64,000 bases of DNA from positions 19-64,018 of the forward strand of contig JAJYEA010000001.1 of the NCBI GenBank assembly GCA_021790425.1. Reading direction: 5' to 3'. Source of the DNA: Thermoplasmata archaeon. Lineage in GTDB: Archaea > Thermoplasmatota > Thermoplasmata > Lutacidiplasmatales > UBA184. Positions 3,660 to 11,224 of the stretch are shown here, piece after piece (the stretch's first letter is position 1; each line of letters begins with the position of its first letter). The notes below the pieces were generated by a model. That model was not told the DNA's origin, did no database searches, and saw only the letters and a list, made by a program, of their open reading frames with translations. Made by a program: the position numbers and the translations under genes.

Positions 3660-5159
3660 CTAACGGAACGCAAGGCATCCCCAGGGGGGTACCGCGGGCT
3701 TGGTAGCGAGCGGCAGGAGTTCTGTCTCGCCCACGCGCCGTTGTTCCTTGGTCTCGCGCTCCCGGATCGTGAAGGTCCGGTCTTGCTTGCTCTGACCATC
3801 GATGGTGACCGCCAGCGGGGTCCCCATTTCGTCCAGGCGCGCATACCTCCTCCCCACCGACCCTGACTCGTCCAGCGTGACCGACACCCCCGCGCTCCGC
3901 AGGGCGTCGGCGAGCTCCTGCGCCAGGACGCCGTGTTCCTTCGGGATGAGGGGAAGGACGCCCACTGTGACTGGGGCGAGATAGGAAGGGAGCGACCAGA
4001 CGAGCCGCTCACCGTCCTTGCGCAGGTGGATATCCGATAGCGCCCAGACGTTGCGGTCCACCCCGAAGGTGAGTTCCAGCACGTGCGGGGTCAGGTGCTT
4101 CCCCCCCTCGGTCGTCACCGAAAGGTCGGTTTTCGACCCTTCCGAATGCTTGGTGAGGTCGTAGTCGCCACGGTAGTGGATGGCCCCGACCTCCTTGAAC
4201 CCACCCAAGGAGACCAGTTCCGCTTCGACATCGAACTGGATGCGGTTGTAGAACGCCCGCTCCCGCTCGTTCTTCTCGAGGAACCGGATCCTCTCCGCGG
4301 GATAGCCCAGGACGTCCCGGAAGAAGCGGTAGGTGTGCGCCATGTGGAACGCGTAGAAGGGGGGAAGGTATCCCTTCTCCACCAACTCCCGCAGGGAGAC
4401 CTCCTCCGGGCGGACCGCCCCGGCCAACCGCTTCTCAGCGAAGAGAATAGGGACCGAGATCTCACCGAACGCCTTCCACTCCGACGGGTAGTCTTCAGGG
4501 TCGAAGAAGATCTGGAGCTCCGCCTGGGTGAAGACCCTCATCCGGAAGAGCGTCTGCCGGGGTGCGATCTCGTTGCGGAACGCCTTCCCGATGACCGCGA
4601 TGCCCATGGGGAGCTTCTTCCGCCCGATGTTCCACATGCGGGAGAAGGCAAGGTAGCTCGACTGGGCGGTCTCCGGGCGGAGGTAGGCCTTCTCCTTCCC
4701 CAGGGCCCCGAACTCCATGCCGAACATCAGGTTGAAGGCGCGCGGGGGTCCCAGCGGGCCCTTGCCGCATCGCGGGCAGGGAGGGTGGAGCTGCTCGAGC
4801 CGCGCGGCGAGCTCGTCCCCTTTCAGCGCCTCGGCATCCTTCTGCCCCTTTGCCTCGAGGAGCTCATCGGCACGGATCACGGTCCCGCAGTTCCCGCAGG
4901 TGACCAGGGGGTCGGCAAAGTGGTCCAGGTGCCCGGAGGCACGGACCACGGCCTCGGGAAGCATCTCCACCGCATCGATGCGGTGGTAGTTCTGGGAGAG
5001 CCCGACGAACCAGGCCTCCCACGCATCCTCCAGCCGGCGCTTCAGGGCGGACCCCATGGGACCGTAGTCGTAGAGCCCCTGGGCCCCCCCGTAGATCTCC
5101 GCGGTGGGCCAGAGCACGCCTCGCCGTTTGAAGATCGAGAGGATCTCGTCGCTGTTCAT
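3660..5159 (-). CDS. glyS: glycine--tRNA ligase (alpha2 type)
   Basis: IYGG..GLYDYGPMG, SGHLDHFADP, YLRPETAQ, FRNEIAPR, FTQAELQIF; anticodon-binding domain SVGRRYAR. Confidence 0.97.
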   Translation of the reverse strand: MNSDEILSIFKRRGVLWPTAEIYGGAQGLYDYGPMGSALKRRLEDAWEAWFVGLSQNYHRIDAVEMLPEAVVRASGHLDHFADPLVTCGNCGTVIRADELLEAKGQKDAEALKGDELAARLEQLHPPCPRCGKGPLGPPRAFNLMFGMEFGALGKEKAYLRPETAQSSYLAFSRMWNIGRKKLPMGIAVIGKAFRNEIAPRQTLFRMRVFTQAELQIFFDPEDYPSEWKAFGEISVPILFAEKRLAGAVRPEEVSLRELVEKGYLPPFYAFHMAHTYRFFRDVLGYPAERIRFLEKNERERAFYNRIQFDVEAELVSLGGFKEVGAIHYRGDYDLTKHSEGSKTDLSVTTEGGKHLTPHVLELTFGVDRNVWALSDIHLRKDGERLVWSLPSYLAPVTVGVLPLIPKEHGVLAQELADALRSAGVSVTLDESGSVGRRYARLDEMGTPLAVTIDGQSKQDRTFTIRERETKEQRRVGETELLPLATKPAVPPWGCLAFR

Positions 5160-5198
5160 CCCACCTGCTGGGGTGAGGCGGGCCTTAAGGATTACTCC

Positions 5199-6104
5199 CT
5201 ACCCGGGGAGGGTCCGGGGGCTCCGAGGCTTTCCGCGGGGCCGCGAGCGCGGCTTGCTGGGGGCGAGGTCCCGTTCCAGTTCACGACGACGTCGCTCCAT
5301 GCTCTCCTTGACCCAGTGGCGAACGTGTCGGTGTTCCCGGGAGTGACGGAGGGACCGGACCCACTCGTCGAACATGCCGAGATCGTGATAGTTCCCAAGT
5401 CGGGTCTGGAGCTTCACCAGCGAGGGTCCCAGGTCCATCCCCTCCGGGTCGACGGCGAGCTCGCGCCGGGTCTGCCGCCACTGCCGCAACACGACACGGA
5501 GGCGGTGCAGTCGGCGCACGGTCGATCGACGTTGTGCCTGACGGAGTGCCTGCTGGAACTCCGTTTGGGCACCTCGGATCTCTCTCGTGGACGCCACCCT
5601 GAGCCGCGAAGCAGAGAGGGGATGCGCCTCCATCCATTCGGAAAGTACTCTCGGTTCGAGGCCACCCTGGGCCAGAAAGTGCTTGGCCCGGACACGAAGG
5701 CGCTTGCCGAAGTTGCTTCGCTCATGCTCCAGAACCGCGCGGAGAGCGTCAGTATCCCCCCGGTCGAGCTCCCCTCGGGCCCCGCCCAAGAGCCGTAGGG
5801 CCACGTCCCGGTCCCTCGTGACACCGGCCGCGTGCGCGAGCTCCACGAGCTCCTTCTCCTCGCGTTCGAACCCGGAGGAAGCGGAAACGGGCGACGCCCG
5901 CCGGAGCAGGCGGAGCGCAATGCGCAGACGGCGCAGGTCCCGATGCAGGTCGTGGATGGCGCGCGGGCTCATCTCCCGACCCTCCGCAGCCTCCCGCAAC
6001 CGCACCTCCACGGAACCCGCCAGCGAAAGGAAACGTTGGTGGAAGGCGGGGGGTCCGACCAAACGAAGAGCCGGCGGGCGACCCGGGGGGGTCCCCTCGC
6101 CCAT
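5199..6104 (-). CDS. CHAD domain polyphosphate-binding protein
   Basis: IHDLHRDLRRLR, GVTRDRDV, LHRLRVVLR, LQTRLGNYHDL motifs; start set at ATG 6104, just after the upstream stop. Confidence 0.88.
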   Translation of the reverse strand: MGEGTPPGRPPALRLVGPPAFHQRFLSLAGSVEVRLREAAEGREMSPRAIHDLHRDLRRLRIALRLLRRASPVSASSGFEREEKELVELAHAAGVTRDRDVALRLLGGARGELDRGDTDALRAVLEHERSNFGKRLRVRAKHFLAQGGLEPRVLSEWMEAHPLSASRLRVASTREIRGAQTEFQQALRQAQRRSTVRRLHRLRVVLRQWRQTRRELAVDPEGMDLGPSLVKLQTRLGNYHDLGMFDEWVRSLRHSREHRHVRHWVKESMERRRRELERDLAPSKPRSRPRGKPRSPRTLPG

Positions 6105-6108
6105 GGCA

Positions 6109-6879
6109 CTACCGGAACGACTCGAGGTGGGTCCGCCCGGTGATCCGGTCGACGCACTCCCGAACGTCCCGGTGGACTTCTTCCGGGCGGCGGTTCCCGT
6201 TGATCTGGACGAAGCCATACTCCTTCGCCATCCAGTCGAACTCGGCCTTGATCAGGGCCTGGTAGCGGAAGAAGCTCTCGAACCGGTCCCGGGAGAGGCC
6301 GATATCCATTCCCGACTCCCAGAAGTCGAGCGACTTGTAGGTCCGGAACGTCCGATGCATCAGGATCTCCGGCCGGGTGTCCAGGAAGATCGTCAGCCGG
6401 GGCCGGAGCGCGAAACCGTAGAGCTCGCTCGCCCACTCGCGGGTGGCTCCCCGGACGATTGCCCGGGCCATGAGCGTGAAGATGTAGCGGTCCGCCAGGA
6501 CCACGAATCCCGCGGAGAGCGCGGGGATGATCTTGTTCTCGAGCTGGTCCGCGAAATCGGCGGCATAGATGAGGGCCAGGGTGGTGGCGCCCAGCACGTT
6601 CCCCTGCTTTGCCCGGTCGATCTGCTTCGACACCAGGTTCGACCGTCGGAGCCCGGTCTCGAGCACCGCGTGACCTTGGACCTCCAGGTAGTCCTTGAGG
6701 AGCTCGCACTCCGTGGTCCTTCCCGATCCGTCGGACCCCTCGATGACGATCAGCGACCCCTTGAGCCCCGAGACGTCGCTTCCCGGGATCCGGTACCCGT
6801 AGGTGGGAGGACCCCCCTTCGGACTCTCCCGGAACACTCCCATGGCCGAGGTCGGGGGCTTGGCGGGCCTACGACTCAT
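6109..6879 (-). CDS. thymidylate-kinase-like protein B (putative subunit of a heteromeric polyP kinase)
   Basis: LIVIEGSDGSGRTT (Lys->Arg P-loop), VLADRY; overlaps the upstream paralog by 11 nt. Confidence 0.88.
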   Translation of the reverse strand: MSRRPAKPPTSAMGVFRESPKGGPPTYGYRIPGSDVSGLKGSLIVIEGSDGSGRTTECELLKDYLEVQGHAVLETGLRRSNLVSKQIDRAKQGNVLGATTLALIYAADFADQLENKIIPALSAGFVVLADRYIFTLMARAIVRGATREWASELYGFALRPRLTIFLDTRPEILMHRTFRTYKSLDFWESGMDIGLSRDRFESFFRYQALIKAEFDWMAKEYGFVQINGNRRPEEVHRDVRECVDRITGRTHLESFR

Positions 6880-7597
6880 GGATCAGCACCTTCTCCTTGG
6901 GGAAGCCCTCGAGCATCGGGCGGATGGCGCCCCGGACCGTCTTCTGCAGGCTCTCGATGCTCTGCTCGGCATCGATCGTGTGGAACCCCTCGCTCTTGGC
7001 GAGGAGATCATACTGGCGCTTCAGCATCCCCTGGAACCGCACATAGCTCTCCCCGACATCCTTCGCGAGGCCGAGGTCCATGCCCGCCTCGTAGTGCTTG
7101 ATCTTGAGGCGGGAGACGTCCTTGCGCCTGCGGGCGGTCTCGACCGGGACGCGGAAGTAGAACGTCCGGTCGGGTTGCACGGCGAAGGAGTACAGGTTCC
7201 GCACCCAATCGGGGTCGCATCCCCGGGCCACGTCCCGTGCGTAGGCGGTGTAGATGTACCGGTCGCAGATGACGAGGTACCCCGCCCGGAGCGGGGGCAG
7301 GATGTTCCGCTCGAAGCGGTCGGCGAAGTCCGTTGCGTGGAGGAGCGAGAAGGTGGTGGGGGTCAGCAGATTCTTTCGCTTCCCCCGGCGGATGATCTCC
7401 GAGGTCAGGTCGGAGGAGTTCCACTCGGTGAAGAAGACGTGATAGCCGCGGGAGGAGAGGTACTTGAGGAGGAGCTGCGCCTGGGTCGACTTGCCGCTCC
7501 CGTCAAGCCCCTCGAAGACGACCAGCTTTCCCGGGTAGATGTGGCGGCCCGGACCTCCGGCTTCCCGGGGCCGCTGGGAGGAGTCCAGCGTGATCAT
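6869..7597 (-). CDS. thymidylate-kinase-like protein A (putative catalytic subunit of a heteromeric polyP kinase)
   Basis: LVVFEGLDGSGKST, VICDRY, YEAGMD; RBS AGGAGGTG upstream. Confidence 0.9.
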   Translation of the reverse strand: MITLDSSQRPREAGGPGRHIYPGKLVVFEGLDGSGKSTQAQLLLKYLSSRGYHVFFTEWNSSDLTSEIIRRGKRKNLLTPTTFSLLHATDFADRFERNILPPLRAGYLVICDRYIYTAYARDVARGCDPDWVRNLYSFAVQPDRTFYFRVPVETARRRKDVSRLKIKHYEAGMDLGLAKDVGESYVRFQGMLKRQYDLLAKSEGFHTIDAEQSIESLQKTVRGAIRPMLEGFPKEKVLIHES

Positions 7598-7777
7598 TCA
7601 GCACCTCCTACCGGCGGGCCGACGACCCGAGTTCACGGTCATCCGCCGCGAGAGCAAGACGACGGAGCCATCGGACCCCGCTGGACCTCCTCCCGTGTTT
7701 CCACCAGGCGAGGAAGAGACACGGGAATCTTAAGGGTACTGGGGAACGAATGGGCCCCGGGGGGCGCCCGGAACGCC

Positions 7778-9331
7778 CTACTCTTCGAGGTCGAGCGAGC
7801 GGCGGAGCCATCGACTGCCCCGGGCCAGAAGCCGGGGATCGGCCGGGGCACCCGGTGCGAGGGTGACGCGGAGCTGCCGCCGCTCGATGCGGAAGCGGGG
7901 CATGGGCCGCACGTCCCCGACCGCCTCCGACAGCGCGAGGATGGCCCCGAGCAACCGCACCACCTCGTCGTCCCCTTCCTCGAGGACGTCCTCGTACCGC
8001 TTGAGGGCGCTGTCCGGGAGGCCATCCCCCTCGTGCATGCTCCCGGCGAGGGCCGCGAGCACCGTCCCCCGGTGCGTGAGCCCGTAGAGCATCCGGTTCC
8101 GCAGGATGTGCGAGGAGTGCGTGGGGTGGCCCGGGTAAGAGATCACGGTCCCGGAGTCGTGGAGGAGCGCCGCCACTTCCAGCGCGAGCCGCTCCTCCTC
8201 CCCCAGCCAATGGCGGCGGACCGTCCGGTCGAAGAGATCGAGGGCGACCGAGCGCACCCGGTGGGCATGGGAGGGGTCCCCTCGCAGGGCCCACAGCGCG
8301 GCGAGGGCTCCCGAGAATCCCATCTCCCGGGCCGAGGCCGGGAGCGGGCGCCCCATCGCCTCGTGCGCGATCCCCTCCCGGATGCCGCATCCGGAGATCG
8401 TGAGCGTCTCGGCCTTCCGCCGGTGCAGGACCCCCAGGACCACCGCAAGACCGGCCACGATGATGTCCGCGCGGTCCGCCGAGAGGCCGGGCACCTCCTT
8501 CCGGGTCTCGAGGGGCTGTTCGGAAAGGAAGGAGTAGAGCCGCTCGACCTCCCGGGTCCGGACCGTGAATCCGTGGACGCGGTGGATCGGGTAGTCGCGC
8601 ATCCCCTGCAGGGTGTGGGCCAGGGCGCGGGTGGTCCCTCCGGACCCAACGACATGGGCTCTCCGGCTGACCTTGAGCTCGTCGAGGGGCTCCAGCGCGT
8701 CATCGATGTGGTTCTGGAGGGCGTCAAGCTCCCGGATCCGCGGCGGGTCGTGGCGGAGGAAGCGCTGGTGGAGCCGGAGCGCACCCAGGGGAAGCGAGAG
8801 CGACCGGTAGAGTTTGCCCTCCTGTACCGAGATCGACTCGAGAGACCCACCGCCCAGGTCGATGATCAGGTTCTCGGTGAGCGGGAGAGAGCTCGCGACC
8901 CCGAGATAGGCGAAGCGCGCTTCCTCCTCCCCCGATAGGGAGCGCAGCCGGATGCCGCACCGGCGGGAGACCTCGCGAAGGAACTCCCGGCCATTGGAGG
9001 CCTCCCGGACCGCGCTGGTGGCGACCGCCTGCACCTGGACCACGCCGTACTCGTCCAGCACCCGCCGGAAGCGTACGAGCGCCGCGAGGGCCCGGGCCCG
9101 GGCCGGCCGCGAGAGCCGGCCGTCAGCCTCGACCCCCTCGACCAATCGAGGGTAGTCCTTGCTCTCGTGGATCGACCAGGGGGGACCCACCGGCGCGCTG
9201 CGGTAGATGACGAGACGGGCGGAGTTCGAGCCGACGTCGATGACCCCCAGCGGCCGGTCGACCCATCGCCCCGAGAAGGTCTCGGCGGATGGTCGTTTTG
9301 CCCCGCCCCTCGGGATGGCCCTTCCTCCCAT
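7778..9331 (-). CDS. ppx: Ppx/GppA exopolyphosphatase with C-terminal HD-like domain
   Basis: VIDVGSNSARL, ATSAVREASN, SGEEEA, IDLGGGSLE, GIREG, AALLHDSG; start taken at ATG 9331. Confidence 0.93.
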   Translation of the reverse strand: MGGRAIPRGGAKRPSAETFSGRWVDRPLGVIDVGSNSARLVIYRSAPVGPPWSIHESKDYPRLVEGVEADGRLSRPARARALAALVRFRRVLDEYGVVQVQAVATSAVREASNGREFLREVSRRCGIRLRSLSGEEEARFAYLGVASSLPLTENLIIDLGGGSLESISVQEGKLYRSLSLPLGALRLHQRFLRHDPPRIRELDALQNHIDDALEPLDELKVSRRAHVVGSGGTTRALAHTLQGMRDYPIHRVHGFTVRTREVERLYSFLSEQPLETRKEVPGLSADRADIIVAGLAVVLGVLHRRKAETLTISGCGIREGIAHEAMGRPLPASAREMGFSGALAALWALRGDPSHAHRVRSVALDLFDRTVRRHWLGEEERLALEVAALLHDSGTVISYPGHPTHSSHILRNRMLYGLTHRGTVLAALAGSMHEGDGLPDSALKRYEDVLEEGDDEVVRLLGAILALSEAVGDVRPMPRFRIERRQLRVTLAPGAPADPRLLARGSRWLRRSLDLEE

Positions 9332-9339
9332 GCCCCGCC

Positions 9340-9879
9340 CTACTCCTCCTTGCTCCGGGAACCCACGGTGCGGCGAAGGCTGCGGGCATGGTTCCGGGTG
9401 AAGGCCCACAGGATCCGCGCCCCTCCGGGCTCGGTCCGCCCCGGGAAGTCGACCGCGACGGCCCCCCCCTTGGAGAAGCGCACGGCGGAGAGCTCCTCGC
9501 CGAAGATGCAGTATCCGATGAACCGGGAAAGTTGGGGTTCGTGACCTACCAGCACCAGGTCCCCTCCCCCCGGGACCGAGCGGGCCTTCCGGAAGAGCTC
9601 CGCCGTGCCGCGCTCGGGTTCCAGTGATTCCCACTCCATCAGCCGGTGCGTCCCCTTCCAGGCCTCCTGGAGCATCTCCGCGGTCTCCCGGGCACGCGCC
9701 AGCGGGCTGGTGACGATGGTGCCCCGTCCCGTCAGGAGTCGCGAGAGGCCCTTTGCTGCCCCGCGGAACTCCTTCCGGCCGGAGGGACGGAGCGGCCGCA
9801 TCCGGTCATCGGGCCATCGGGCGAAGTCGCGTGACGCGGCGGGGGCATGCCGCACCATGATCCATCGGCGCCCGCTCAA
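9340..9879 (-). CDS. sixA: SixA-like histidine phosphatase (phosphoglycerate mutase superfamily)
   Basis: MVRHA, RPL, TSPLARARETA, LVGHEP motifs; start uncertain (TTG 9879 after a GGAG). Confidence 0.85.
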   Translation of the reverse strand: MSGRRWIMVRHAPAASRDFARWPDDRMRPLRPSGRKEFRGAAKGLSRLLTGRGTIVTSPLARARETAEMLQEAWKGTHRLMEWESLEPERGTAELFRKARSVPGGGDLVLVGHEPQLSRFIGYCIFGEELSAVRFSKGGAVAVDFPGRTEPGGARILWAFTRNHARSLRRTVGSRSKEE

Positions 9880-10094
9880 CGTCGGTCTCCCCGTGGAGGG
9901 GGAGCGTCCGGGCGCGCAAGCGATGCGCGGCCGGCGGACCCCGGACGGACTTCCATCGTACCCCCCCGGGACCGTCGAGGAGTAATAGTCTCTCCTTGCT
10001 CCCGCGGAGCTTGGGGGACGCTGCCCGACCCCTCCGGTCGGCGGGCTCGATGCCAGCATCAACTTTTTAGGCGGGGGGGTATTGGTGGTTCGTC

Positions 10095-10688
10095 ATGAGT
10101 GGCACGCCGCCGCAGGGAGGGGTCCAGGGTTCCCAGAGCCTTCCCGAAACCAAGGTCCGATTCTTCAGCCAGGAATACGCCGACATCCAGAAACTGCGCG
10201 AGCTCGCGGGGAAGAACGAGCATCAGGCCATGAAGCTCCGCCACAAGGCGGCCAAATACATGACCTCCATGGAAAATTACCGGTACAAGGCGACCGTCGC
10301 GAAGGAGCGCGCGGCCCTGATGTCGGAGAAGATCGCGGAGGTCGAGGCCCGGATGAAGGAGCTCGAGGACGAGCTCCGGGCGGGCGCCCAGTCGGTCCAG
10401 AGCGGAGGGGTCCGTCCCCGGGACCAGTCCCGGCTCCACCTCAAGATCCGGAGGTCCCAGGAGAAGATCGTCAAGCTCCAGCGACGCTCCGCCTACTATG
10501 CGTCCAAGAACGCGCACTATCTCGCCGTCTCCTCCCAGAAGAAGGTGAAGGCCGACATCCTCCAGGAGCAGGCCAAGGCCTTCGACATCGAGGCCAACAA
10601 CCAGAACACCCGCGCCGACCGGCTGCAGCAGGCGACGTCCACGGACGCCGCCGCCACGAACATGACGCAGCGCCAGATGGGCCGCTGA
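10095..10688 (+). CDS. hypothetical coiled-coil protein
   Basis: All-helical K/E/Q/A-rich 197 aa; TGATG overlap with the next gene. Confidence 0.75.
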   Translation: MSGTPPQGGVQGSQSLPETKVRFFSQEYADIQKLRELAGKNEHQAMKLRHKAAKYMTSMENYRYKATVAKERAALMSEKIAEVEARMKELEDELRAGAQSVQSGGVRPRDQSRLHLKIRRSQEKIVKLQRRSAYYASKNAHYLAVSSQKKVKADILQEQAKAFDIEANNQNTRADRLQQATSTDAAATNMTQRQMGR

Positions 10689-11224
10689 TGAAGGTCATCG
10701 TCACCGTCGGCATGCCCGGCTCGGGGAAGGACGAGATCGTGAACGTCGCGAAGAAGCTGGGGCTCCACGTGATCAAGATGGGCGACATGGTCCGTGACGA
10801 GACCCGCCGCCGGGGCCTGCAGCTCAACGACCAGAACATCGGCCGGATCGCGAACGAGGAGCGCGAGAAGCAGGGCGCCGCCATCTGGGCGAAGAAGACC
10901 ATTCCGCGAGTCACCGAGACCGAGACGCTGATCGACGGGGCGCGCAGCGAGGCCGAGATCGCCCTGTTCCGCCACAACTTCGGCGACATGAGCGTCATCG
11001 GCGTGTTCTCCTCCCCCGAGAGCCGCTTCGAGCGGCTCAGCCACCGGGGCCGCGGGGACGACTCCATGAGCATGGAGGCCTTCTACGAACGCGACCGGCG
11101 CGAGCTCAAGTTCGGGATCGGGAACGCCTTCGCCCTGGCCGACCACATGCTGGTCAACGACAGCACGCTCGAATCCTTCCGCGCCCAGGCCGAGAAGGTC
11201 CTGACCGAGATCCTCGAGGAGTGA
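10688..11224 (+). CDS. UPF0200/COG0237 dephospho-CoA-kinase-like P-loop kinase
   Basis: VGMPGSGK, MGDMVR, IDGARS..E, RGRGDD, RDRRELKFGIG. Confidence 0.9.
   Translation: MKVIVTVGMPGSGKDEIVNVAKKLGLHVIKMGDMVRDETRRRGLQLNDQNIGRIANEEREKQGAAIWAKKTIPRVTETETLIDGARSEAEIALFRHNFGDMSVIGVFSSPESRFERLSHRGRGDDSMSMEAFYERDRRELKFGIGNAFALADHMLVNDSTLESFRAQAEKVLTEILEE

Follow-up and report, generated by a model that had tools for sequence, protein, structure and literature searches.

A probable PPK3-type polyphosphate operon, named as dTMP kinases, in a Thermoplasmata family

Published PPK3 and the five-gene cluster

The closest described counterpart of the locus analyzed here is polyphosphate (polyP) kinase 3 (PPK3) of Sulfolobus acidocaldarius (Hofmann et al., J Biol Chem 2026, PMC12995831; bioRxiv preprint 2024, 10.1101/2024.08.28.610084). 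The locus is a cluster of five genes at positions 5199-9879 of a 64,000-nucleotide (nt) stretch of Thermoplasmata DNA (contig JAJYEA010000001.1, hereafter the window), and includes two adjacent genes for thymidylate kinase (Tmk)-like proteins, TmkA and TmkB. The statements on published PPK3 made here follow the main text of PMC12995831. The S. acidocaldarius operon consists of sixA (saci_2017), ppx (saci_2018), two genes annotated as dTMP kinases (saci_2019 and saci_2020) and a CHAD gene (saci_2021). Saci_2019, the c subunit (cPPK3), synthesizes polyP from ATP and also forms ATP from ADP and polyP. Saci_2020, the r subunit (rPPK3), is inactive, yet boosts Saci_2019: the activity of the c subunit alone is about a tenth that of the holoenzyme, which is a heteromeric alpha2beta2 complex. 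ATP formation from polyP is strongly favored by this complex (SaPPK3), polyP is made only at a high ATP/ADP ratio, and activity with GDP is reduced. dTDP was made by Saci_0893 only, and by neither Saci_2019 nor Saci_2020. Loss of the DRX arginine was given as the reason for the inactivity of Saci_2020, and the pairing of active and inactive paralogous units was likened to the two-domain class II PPK2 enzymes, whose N-terminal domain is inactive. PPX, SixA and CHAD proteins are the typical PPK3 neighbors, all but one of the predicted PPK3 operons encode both subunits, and most PPK3 holders are without PPK1 and PPK2. The range given in the main texts of article and preprint is mainly Sulfolobaceae and Nitrososphaeraceae, with few bacteria. 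Neither main text names Thermoplasmata, supplementary trees and tables aside, and no publication joining PPK3 with Thermoplasmata was found by a literature search.

The cluster in the window consists of five co-oriented open reading frames (ORFs). Read along the minus strand they are sixA-like, ppx, tmkA, tmkB and CHAD, which matches the SaPPK3 operon in both gene content and order. As in SaPPK3, the motifs of a catalytic subunit are intact in one Tmk-like protein and one such motif is changed in the other, and, as in S. acidocaldarius, a separate canonical dTMP kinase lies elsewhere in the genome. The window differs from the SaPPK3 operon in its lineage, a Thermoplasmata family, and in the 180 nt of spacer that separate ppx from tmkA. 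Judged by the match to the Protein Data Bank (PDB) entries 2plr/5h70, the predicted folds, the phylogeny with its approximately unbiased (AU) test, the subunit motifs and the operon order, TmkA and TmkB are assigned to PPK3 as orthologs of the published family. We consider it probable (about 0.85) that the cluster is a PPK3-type polyP operon, sixA-ppx-cPPK3-rPPK3-CHAD, with TmkA as the catalytic subunit and TmkB as its partner. The family, its two-subunit make-up and its gene partners are already published; the locus would extend the range of PPK3 to most of a Thermoplasmata family.

Much of this had been anticipated from the letters of the window. The original prediction described five co-oriented genes with two tandem, overlapping Tmk paralogs and quoted their P-loops, which is borne out by the five minus-strand ORFs and an 11-nt overlap of tmkA and tmkB (6869-6879; the two proteins are 38.6% identical over 215 amino acids, aa). 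The 'family 3' PPK made of two Tmk-annotated subunits that it mentioned corresponds to the enzyme of PMC12995831, its assignment of the pair as a catalytic and a regulatory polyP kinase subunit is supported by sequence, predicted fold, tree, motifs and operon order, and the Thermoplasmata lineage that it named fits the names given to close relatives. Its description of a complete synthesis module went beyond the evidence, as SaPPK3 strongly favors ATP formation from polyP.

The solved homolog of cPPK3 is STK_15430/ST1543 of Sulfurisphaera tokodaii (PDB 2plr, 4nzy, 4rzx, 5h70), which is close to TmkA in sequence and fold and was solved alone, without a partner subunit. TmkA matched 2plr/5h70 at 3.3e-63 (216.7 bits), compared with 1.3e-18 for the best true Tmk, and TmkB matched 2plr at 1.5e-41 (145.8 bits), compared with 1e-15 for true Tmks. 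Canonical Tmks scored about 60-71 bits against TmkA and TmkB in the PDB sequence search. The AlphaFold model of TmkA (confidence score pLDDT, predicted local distance difference test, 92.5) was superposed on 5h70_B with a template modeling (TM) score of 0.94, a root mean square deviation (rmsd) of 1.5 Å and 50% identity, and that of TmkB (pLDDT 86.9) on 5h70_A with a TM score of 0.93, an rmsd of 1.9 Å and 35-36% identity. For the TmkA and TmkB models alike, the top eight PDB chains were all ST1543. Compared with ST1543, TmkA has about 20 extra N-terminal residues, where model confidence is low. A complex prediction with two TmkB chains and one TmkA chain, using separate alignments, scored 0.68, which is uninformative either way because one control reached 0.53.

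Phylogeny, subunit motifs and distribution

Reference loci comprised 20 from the genomes of relatives and the best 80 from a scan in which each species was represented by one genome and which gave at least 600 matching stretches. No Sulfolobales were among these best 80 loci; five 2plr-like loci were reached through P0161, itself closely related to PDB 2plr, and through 401 sampled genomes from a single phylum. The canonical set held 11 Tmk genes, that of this genome included. The tree was built from 91 of the 221 Tmk-like rows, picked so that each group is represented. Canonical Tmks were split from every c-type (TmkA-like) and r-type (TmkB-like) row at a support of 99. The c-type rows formed a clade of 40 at a support of 100, in which TmkA stood together with the 2plr-like rows, and TmkB lay within a clade of nine Thermoplasmata r-type rows, likewise at 100. 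Joining nine Thermoplasmata c and nine r rows with the canonical Tmks was rejected by the AU test (log-likelihood difference 112.9, p-AU 0.0006). The phylogeny against true Tmks that had been proposed as a check thus sets both TmkA and TmkB apart from canonical dTMP kinases. An origin of the pair by lineage-specific duplication of canonical tmk was considered as well, and was rejected because the c clade spans all taxa and the AU test excludes the grouping.

Motifs were surveyed in 106 c-type, 104 r-type and 11 canonical rows. The Walker-A lysine is present in 105/106 c-type rows (one row is incomplete) and 11/11 canonical rows, and is replaced by arginine in 103/104 r-type rows, the remaining one having lysine. 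The DFAD-R position is arginine in 106/106 c-type rows and either glutamine (63/104) or arginine (41/104) in r-type rows, DFADQ being found in all 43 archaeal and 20/61 bacterial r-type rows; canonical rows were left out here, as their alignment is unsure. The DRX arginine is kept in 106/106 c-type, 11/11 canonical and 99/104 r-type rows, and the five r-type rows with glycine (DGY) are exactly those of the five 2plr-like loci. The AR-D position is aspartate in 106/106 c-type rows, varied in r-type rows, and glutamine in 9/11 canonical rows.

TmkA carries every c-type state, i.e. the Walker-A lysine (GLDGSGKST), EWNSS, DFADR, DRY and ARD. It matches all 34 columns that are invariant among 105 c-type sequences, the 2plr-like ones included, and its invariant residues include K36, K73, R94, R113, R121, R125 and R158; Walker A, the DRX arginine and the basic residues expected of a c subunit are intact. 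TmkB has a Walker-A arginine (GSDGSGRTT), DFADQ and a retained DRY (ADRYIF). Canonical Tmks (Thermus thermophilus 5x7j, Aquifex aeolicus 2pbr and the copy of this genome on contig C28) share the P-loop kinase fold, Walker A, DRX and the lid with TmkA and TmkB, and PF02223 matches TmkA, TmkB and the C28 protein alike. They have 'EP'-type and 'AYQ' motifs in place of the c-type EWNSS and ARD. The glutamine of 'AYQ', which we take to contact thymine, is aspartate in TmkA and alanine in TmkB. Neither protein groups with canonical Tmks or carries their acceptor-site motifs, though both pass the family models for dTMP kinase.

The survey also bears on the r subunit in general. Loss of the DRX arginine characterizes the Sulfolobaceae-type branch and not the PPK3 family as the paper delimits it, which takes in Nitrososphaeraceae and bacteria, so the published account of r-subunit inactivity does not apply to most members in this sample. 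The change that runs through the r-type family is the replacement of the Walker-A lysine by arginine, which is a simple sequence marker of the partner subunit. No mention of this replacement turned up in term searches of the main text of PMC12995831 and of the preprint, although the supplements may show it. With the 2plr-like r rows, TmkB shares only the Walker-A replacement and DFADQ.

The wider neighborhood was called with jackhmmer on stop-to-stop ORFs, and a few calls may be spurious. A second Tmk-like ORF lay beside the first in 78/80 of the best scan loci, 20/20 of the relatives' loci and 5/5 of the 2plr-like loci; in the window, likewise, the c and r paralogs are adjacent in one putative operon with ppx, sixA and CHAD genes around them. 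Conservation of the neighborhood, another proposed check, was found in the relatives' loci, where ppx and the c and r genes were adjacent and co-oriented, with ppx directly upstream of the pair, in 20/20. All 25 Thermoplasmata loci had Ppx and an r gene, 24 had SixA and 22 had CHAD; the 62 bacterial loci had Ppx in 44, SixA in 27 and CHAD in 24. The window, four other Thermoplasmata loci and 5/5 2plr-like loci have the full order SixA, Ppx, c, r, CHAD, and in the 2plr-like loci a sixA homolog is upstream of ppx each time. Other genera have CHAD upstream of ppx and sixA convergent downstream. CHAD was found in no relative by tblastn at 1e-4; its homologs were recovered later by jackhmmer, and Pfam confirmed 2/2 of those checked.

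Within the family, a strong c-type match (E <= 1e-85) was found in 21/24 other genomes. The exceptions were G001 (64% complete), which had an r-type match only, G023 (87% complete) and G007 (about 100% complete), the last with neither a c-type nor an r-type match; G007 seems either to have lost the operon or never to have acquired it. Outside the family, a c-type match was present in 0/6 genomes from other families of the order and in 1/10 genomes from other families of the class (G037). The c and r proteins of the latter pair (L037, G037:C10:1-13000) both group with Nitrososphaeria in the tree, and this suggests that the pair as a whole was acquired separately by horizontal transfer. Bacteria of many phyla supplied 62 of the best 80 scan loci.

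Several single chains combine the domains of the pair. P0121 (460 aa; a cluster of five members, some named Alicyclobacillaceae) is a natural fusion in which the r-type domain comes after the c-type one; this fits a physical partnership of the two subunits. P0122, P0126 and P0130 (650-696 aa) are fusions as well, pairing a c-type domain with an r-type (or degenerate second) domain. One possible fusion is mentioned in PMC12995831, as likely an assembly error or a true fusion. A c-type PPK3 domain with GLDGSGKST and, in most cases, WNSS was also seen in the middle of very long proteins, P0184 (2575 aa) and P0186, P0194, P0208, P0213, P0219 and P0256 (about 1200-1600 aa).

Proposed roles and alternative explanations

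If the cluster is a PPK3-type operon, TmkA would transfer phosphate reversibly between ATP/ADP and polyP, and TmkB, as a catalytically impaired paralog, would assemble with TmkA and raise its activity. Ppx would degrade polyP to phosphate, the CHAD protein would bind polyP granules, and the SixA-like phosphatase would be a conserved partner in the cluster. By analogy with S. acidocaldarius, we infer that polyP would preferentially be used to form ATP when the energy charge is low, that dTMP kinase activity would be lacking and that the assembly would be alpha2beta2.

The source assembly (98.6% complete, 153 contigs) was searched for other kinases of these families. A third Tmk, a 209-aa ORF, is encoded on contig C28 (G000:C28:6634-7152; PF02223 93 bits); a search for a separate canonical tmk was among the proposed checks. 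Its best PDB matches were Thermus and Aquifex Tmks (about 1e-19 to 1e-17), 2plr was absent from the 41 matches listed, and it groups with the other canonical rows in the tree. The gene lies apart from ppx, with TBP-like and hydrolase-like ORFs (named by reading translations) as its neighbors. PPK1 had no match in the whole genome, and neither PPK1 nor PPK2 had one on the contig of the window. A single-domain PPK2 was found on contig C61 (25170-25832; L005:1438-2409, minus strand; PF03976 7.2e-75, 250.7 bits), where it adjoins a RadB/KaiC-like ORF (named by reading the translation). Like PPK3, PPK2 is a P-loop kinase that exchanges phosphate between polyP and nucleotides; unlike TmkA and TmkB, it belongs to PF03976 and is a separate gene. 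The statement that the Tmk-like pair stands in place of PPK1/PPK2 therefore holds for the cluster, and for PPK1 in the genome, but not for PPK2 in the genome. In this the genome also differs from most PPK3 holders. Of the 24 further genomes from this family, nine gave a PPK2 match and 15 did not, and none gave a match to PPK1.

Several points weigh against the assignment to PPK3. TmkB keeps the DRX arginine whose loss was held to explain the inactive subunit; because it does, only the Walker-A replacement and DFADQ are left to account for its predicted inactivity. The S. tokodaii homolog was deposited as a dTMP kinase (PDB titles) and had earlier been reported as one, according to a passage of the preprint. 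Given a PPK2 in the genome, the chief polyP enzyme might not be PPK3. The tree came from a 'quick' search and its canonical branches are long, and the group for the AU test was chosen after the tree was known.

One of these points is also what a reading of TmkA and TmkB as genuine, divergent thymidylate kinases would build on, their link to ppx then reflecting shared phosphate metabolism only. Both proteins pass PF02223 and TIGR00041, the NCBIfam model for dTMP kinase (109.6 bits for TmkA and 86.1 bits for TmkB; cut-off 83.25), and the nearest solved structure bears the title 'dTMP kinase (st1543)', ST1543 being described in the preprint passage as an unusual thymidylate kinase. The genome nevertheless has its own canonical tmk, which unlike the pair is not beside ppx and lies across the branch with a support of 99; the AU test rejects a grouping of the pair with canonical Tmks; the 'AYQ' position, glutamine in 9/11 canonical rows, is aspartate in 106/106 c-type rows; and the homologs Saci_2019 and Saci_2020 did not make dTDP. 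We regard this reading as highly improbable. The scores themselves are in line with the expectation that annotation pipelines would call both proteins dTMP kinases, and close relatives of TmkA carry the public name 'dTMP kinase [Thermoplasmata archaeon]'. As pipelines name both subunits in this way, polyP metabolism is under-called in such genomes.

The pair could be of PPK3 descent and yet act mainly on another acceptor or donor (polyP-dependent phosphorylation of GDP, other nucleoside diphosphates or nucleoside monophosphates), with ATP/polyP exchange left to PPK2. Such a division of labor is plausible given PPK2 here and in 9/24 other family genomes, and SaPPK3 itself shows a reduced activity with GDP. 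We judge it unlikely all the same, since TmkA keeps all invariant c-type columns, with no sign of a changed site, and PPK2 was not found in 15 family genomes whereas the c-type match is present in 21. That tmkA and tmkB are a remnant, decaying or silent, with polyP turnover left to PPK2 and Ppx alone, is scarcely credible. No RNA run was among the listed sequencing runs with this DNA, and one complete genome of the family (G007) is without any match; against this, both kinase ORFs are intact with no stops inside the matches, every family-invariant residue is kept, a strong ribosome-binding site stands ahead of tmkA, and the pair and ppx are adjacent in all 20 relatives' loci. A PPK3-type polyP kinase remains the preferred reading of the pair.

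Outside the Sulfolobaceae-type branch of PPK3, the partner subunit may have a role beyond that of a scaffold. Replacement of a P-loop lysine by arginine often leaves nucleotide binding intact but blocks transfer. In TmkB and 98 other r-type rows the DRX arginine is kept, and the Walker-A replacement and, in archaeal rows, DFADQ are the main changes. TmkB might on these grounds be a nucleotide-binding sensor and not a dead scaffold. TmkB would then set the direction or rate of polyP/ATP exchange by energy charge, unlike the mechanism proposed for Saci_2020. PPK2 and PPK3 in one genome could also split synthesis and mobilization of polyP. This is offered as a speculative possibility, with the odds against it.

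Gene calls, spacer and flanks

Coordinates of the cluster and its flanks are collected in Table 1. The sixA-like protein scored 44.1 bits against TIGR00249 (sixA), under the cut-off of 74.5. Its start was placed at TTG 9879, the codon named in the original prediction and present there, with GGGGAG upstream; ATG 9858 is an alternative, and the ORF is open up to 10062. Ppx scored 283 bits against TIGR03706, under the cut-off of 307; ATG 9331 puts the start of the Pfam domain near the N-terminus of the product, and the ORF is open to 9634. The CHAD gene starts at ATG 6104, 4 nt past the tmkB stop, and its ORF is open to 6218.

Table 1. Features of the cluster and its flanks in the window
Feature	Coordinates	Strand	Remarks
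Small P-loop protein	10700-11224	+	AAA_17 59.7 bits; downstream of a coiled-coil-like ORF
sixA-like histidine phosphatase	9340..9879	-	First gene; His_Phos_1 28.9 bits (cut-off 21.7)
ppx, exopolyphosphatase, Ppx/GppA family with domain III	7778..9331	-	Ppx-GppA 1.3e-59, Ppx-GppA_III 9.2e-13
ppx-tmkA spacer, 180 nt	7598..7777	-	GGAGGTG 6 nt before tmkA ATG
tmkA, 242 aa	6869..7597	-	P-loop GLDGSGKST; Thymidylate_kin 2e-28
tmkB, 256 aa	6109..6879	-	P-loop GSDGSGRTT; Thymidylate_kin 3.1e-20
CHAD-domain protein	5199..6104	-	Last gene; PF05235 3.2e-10, 40.8 bits (cut-off 25.6)
Glycyl-tRNA synthetase-like ORF	3660-5159	-	Named by reading translation

The spacer is longer than the ppx-tmkA gap in relatives, which is about 10-60 nt (e.g. 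L018, L024). It contains an AT-richer stretch, CTTAAGATT, and the GGAGGTG ribosome-binding site. An Rfam scan of window 4900-10300 gave no match. In the spacer, no promoter-like or terminator-like site was reported by a bacterial-type promoter/terminator scan, the scope of which leaves out archaeal promoters. Overall that scan returned no promoter-like site and one terminator-like site, a count below the shuffled mean. The spacer may carry an internal promoter.

A glycyl-tRNA synthetase-like ORF near the operon was also seen in several relative genera (L018, L022-L026, L033). DNA near-identical to 5199-9879 was found in mine-drainage metagenome runs of one study (X1, from which this DNA may stem, X2 and X4), and in a single wastewater metagenome run (X3) from another study.

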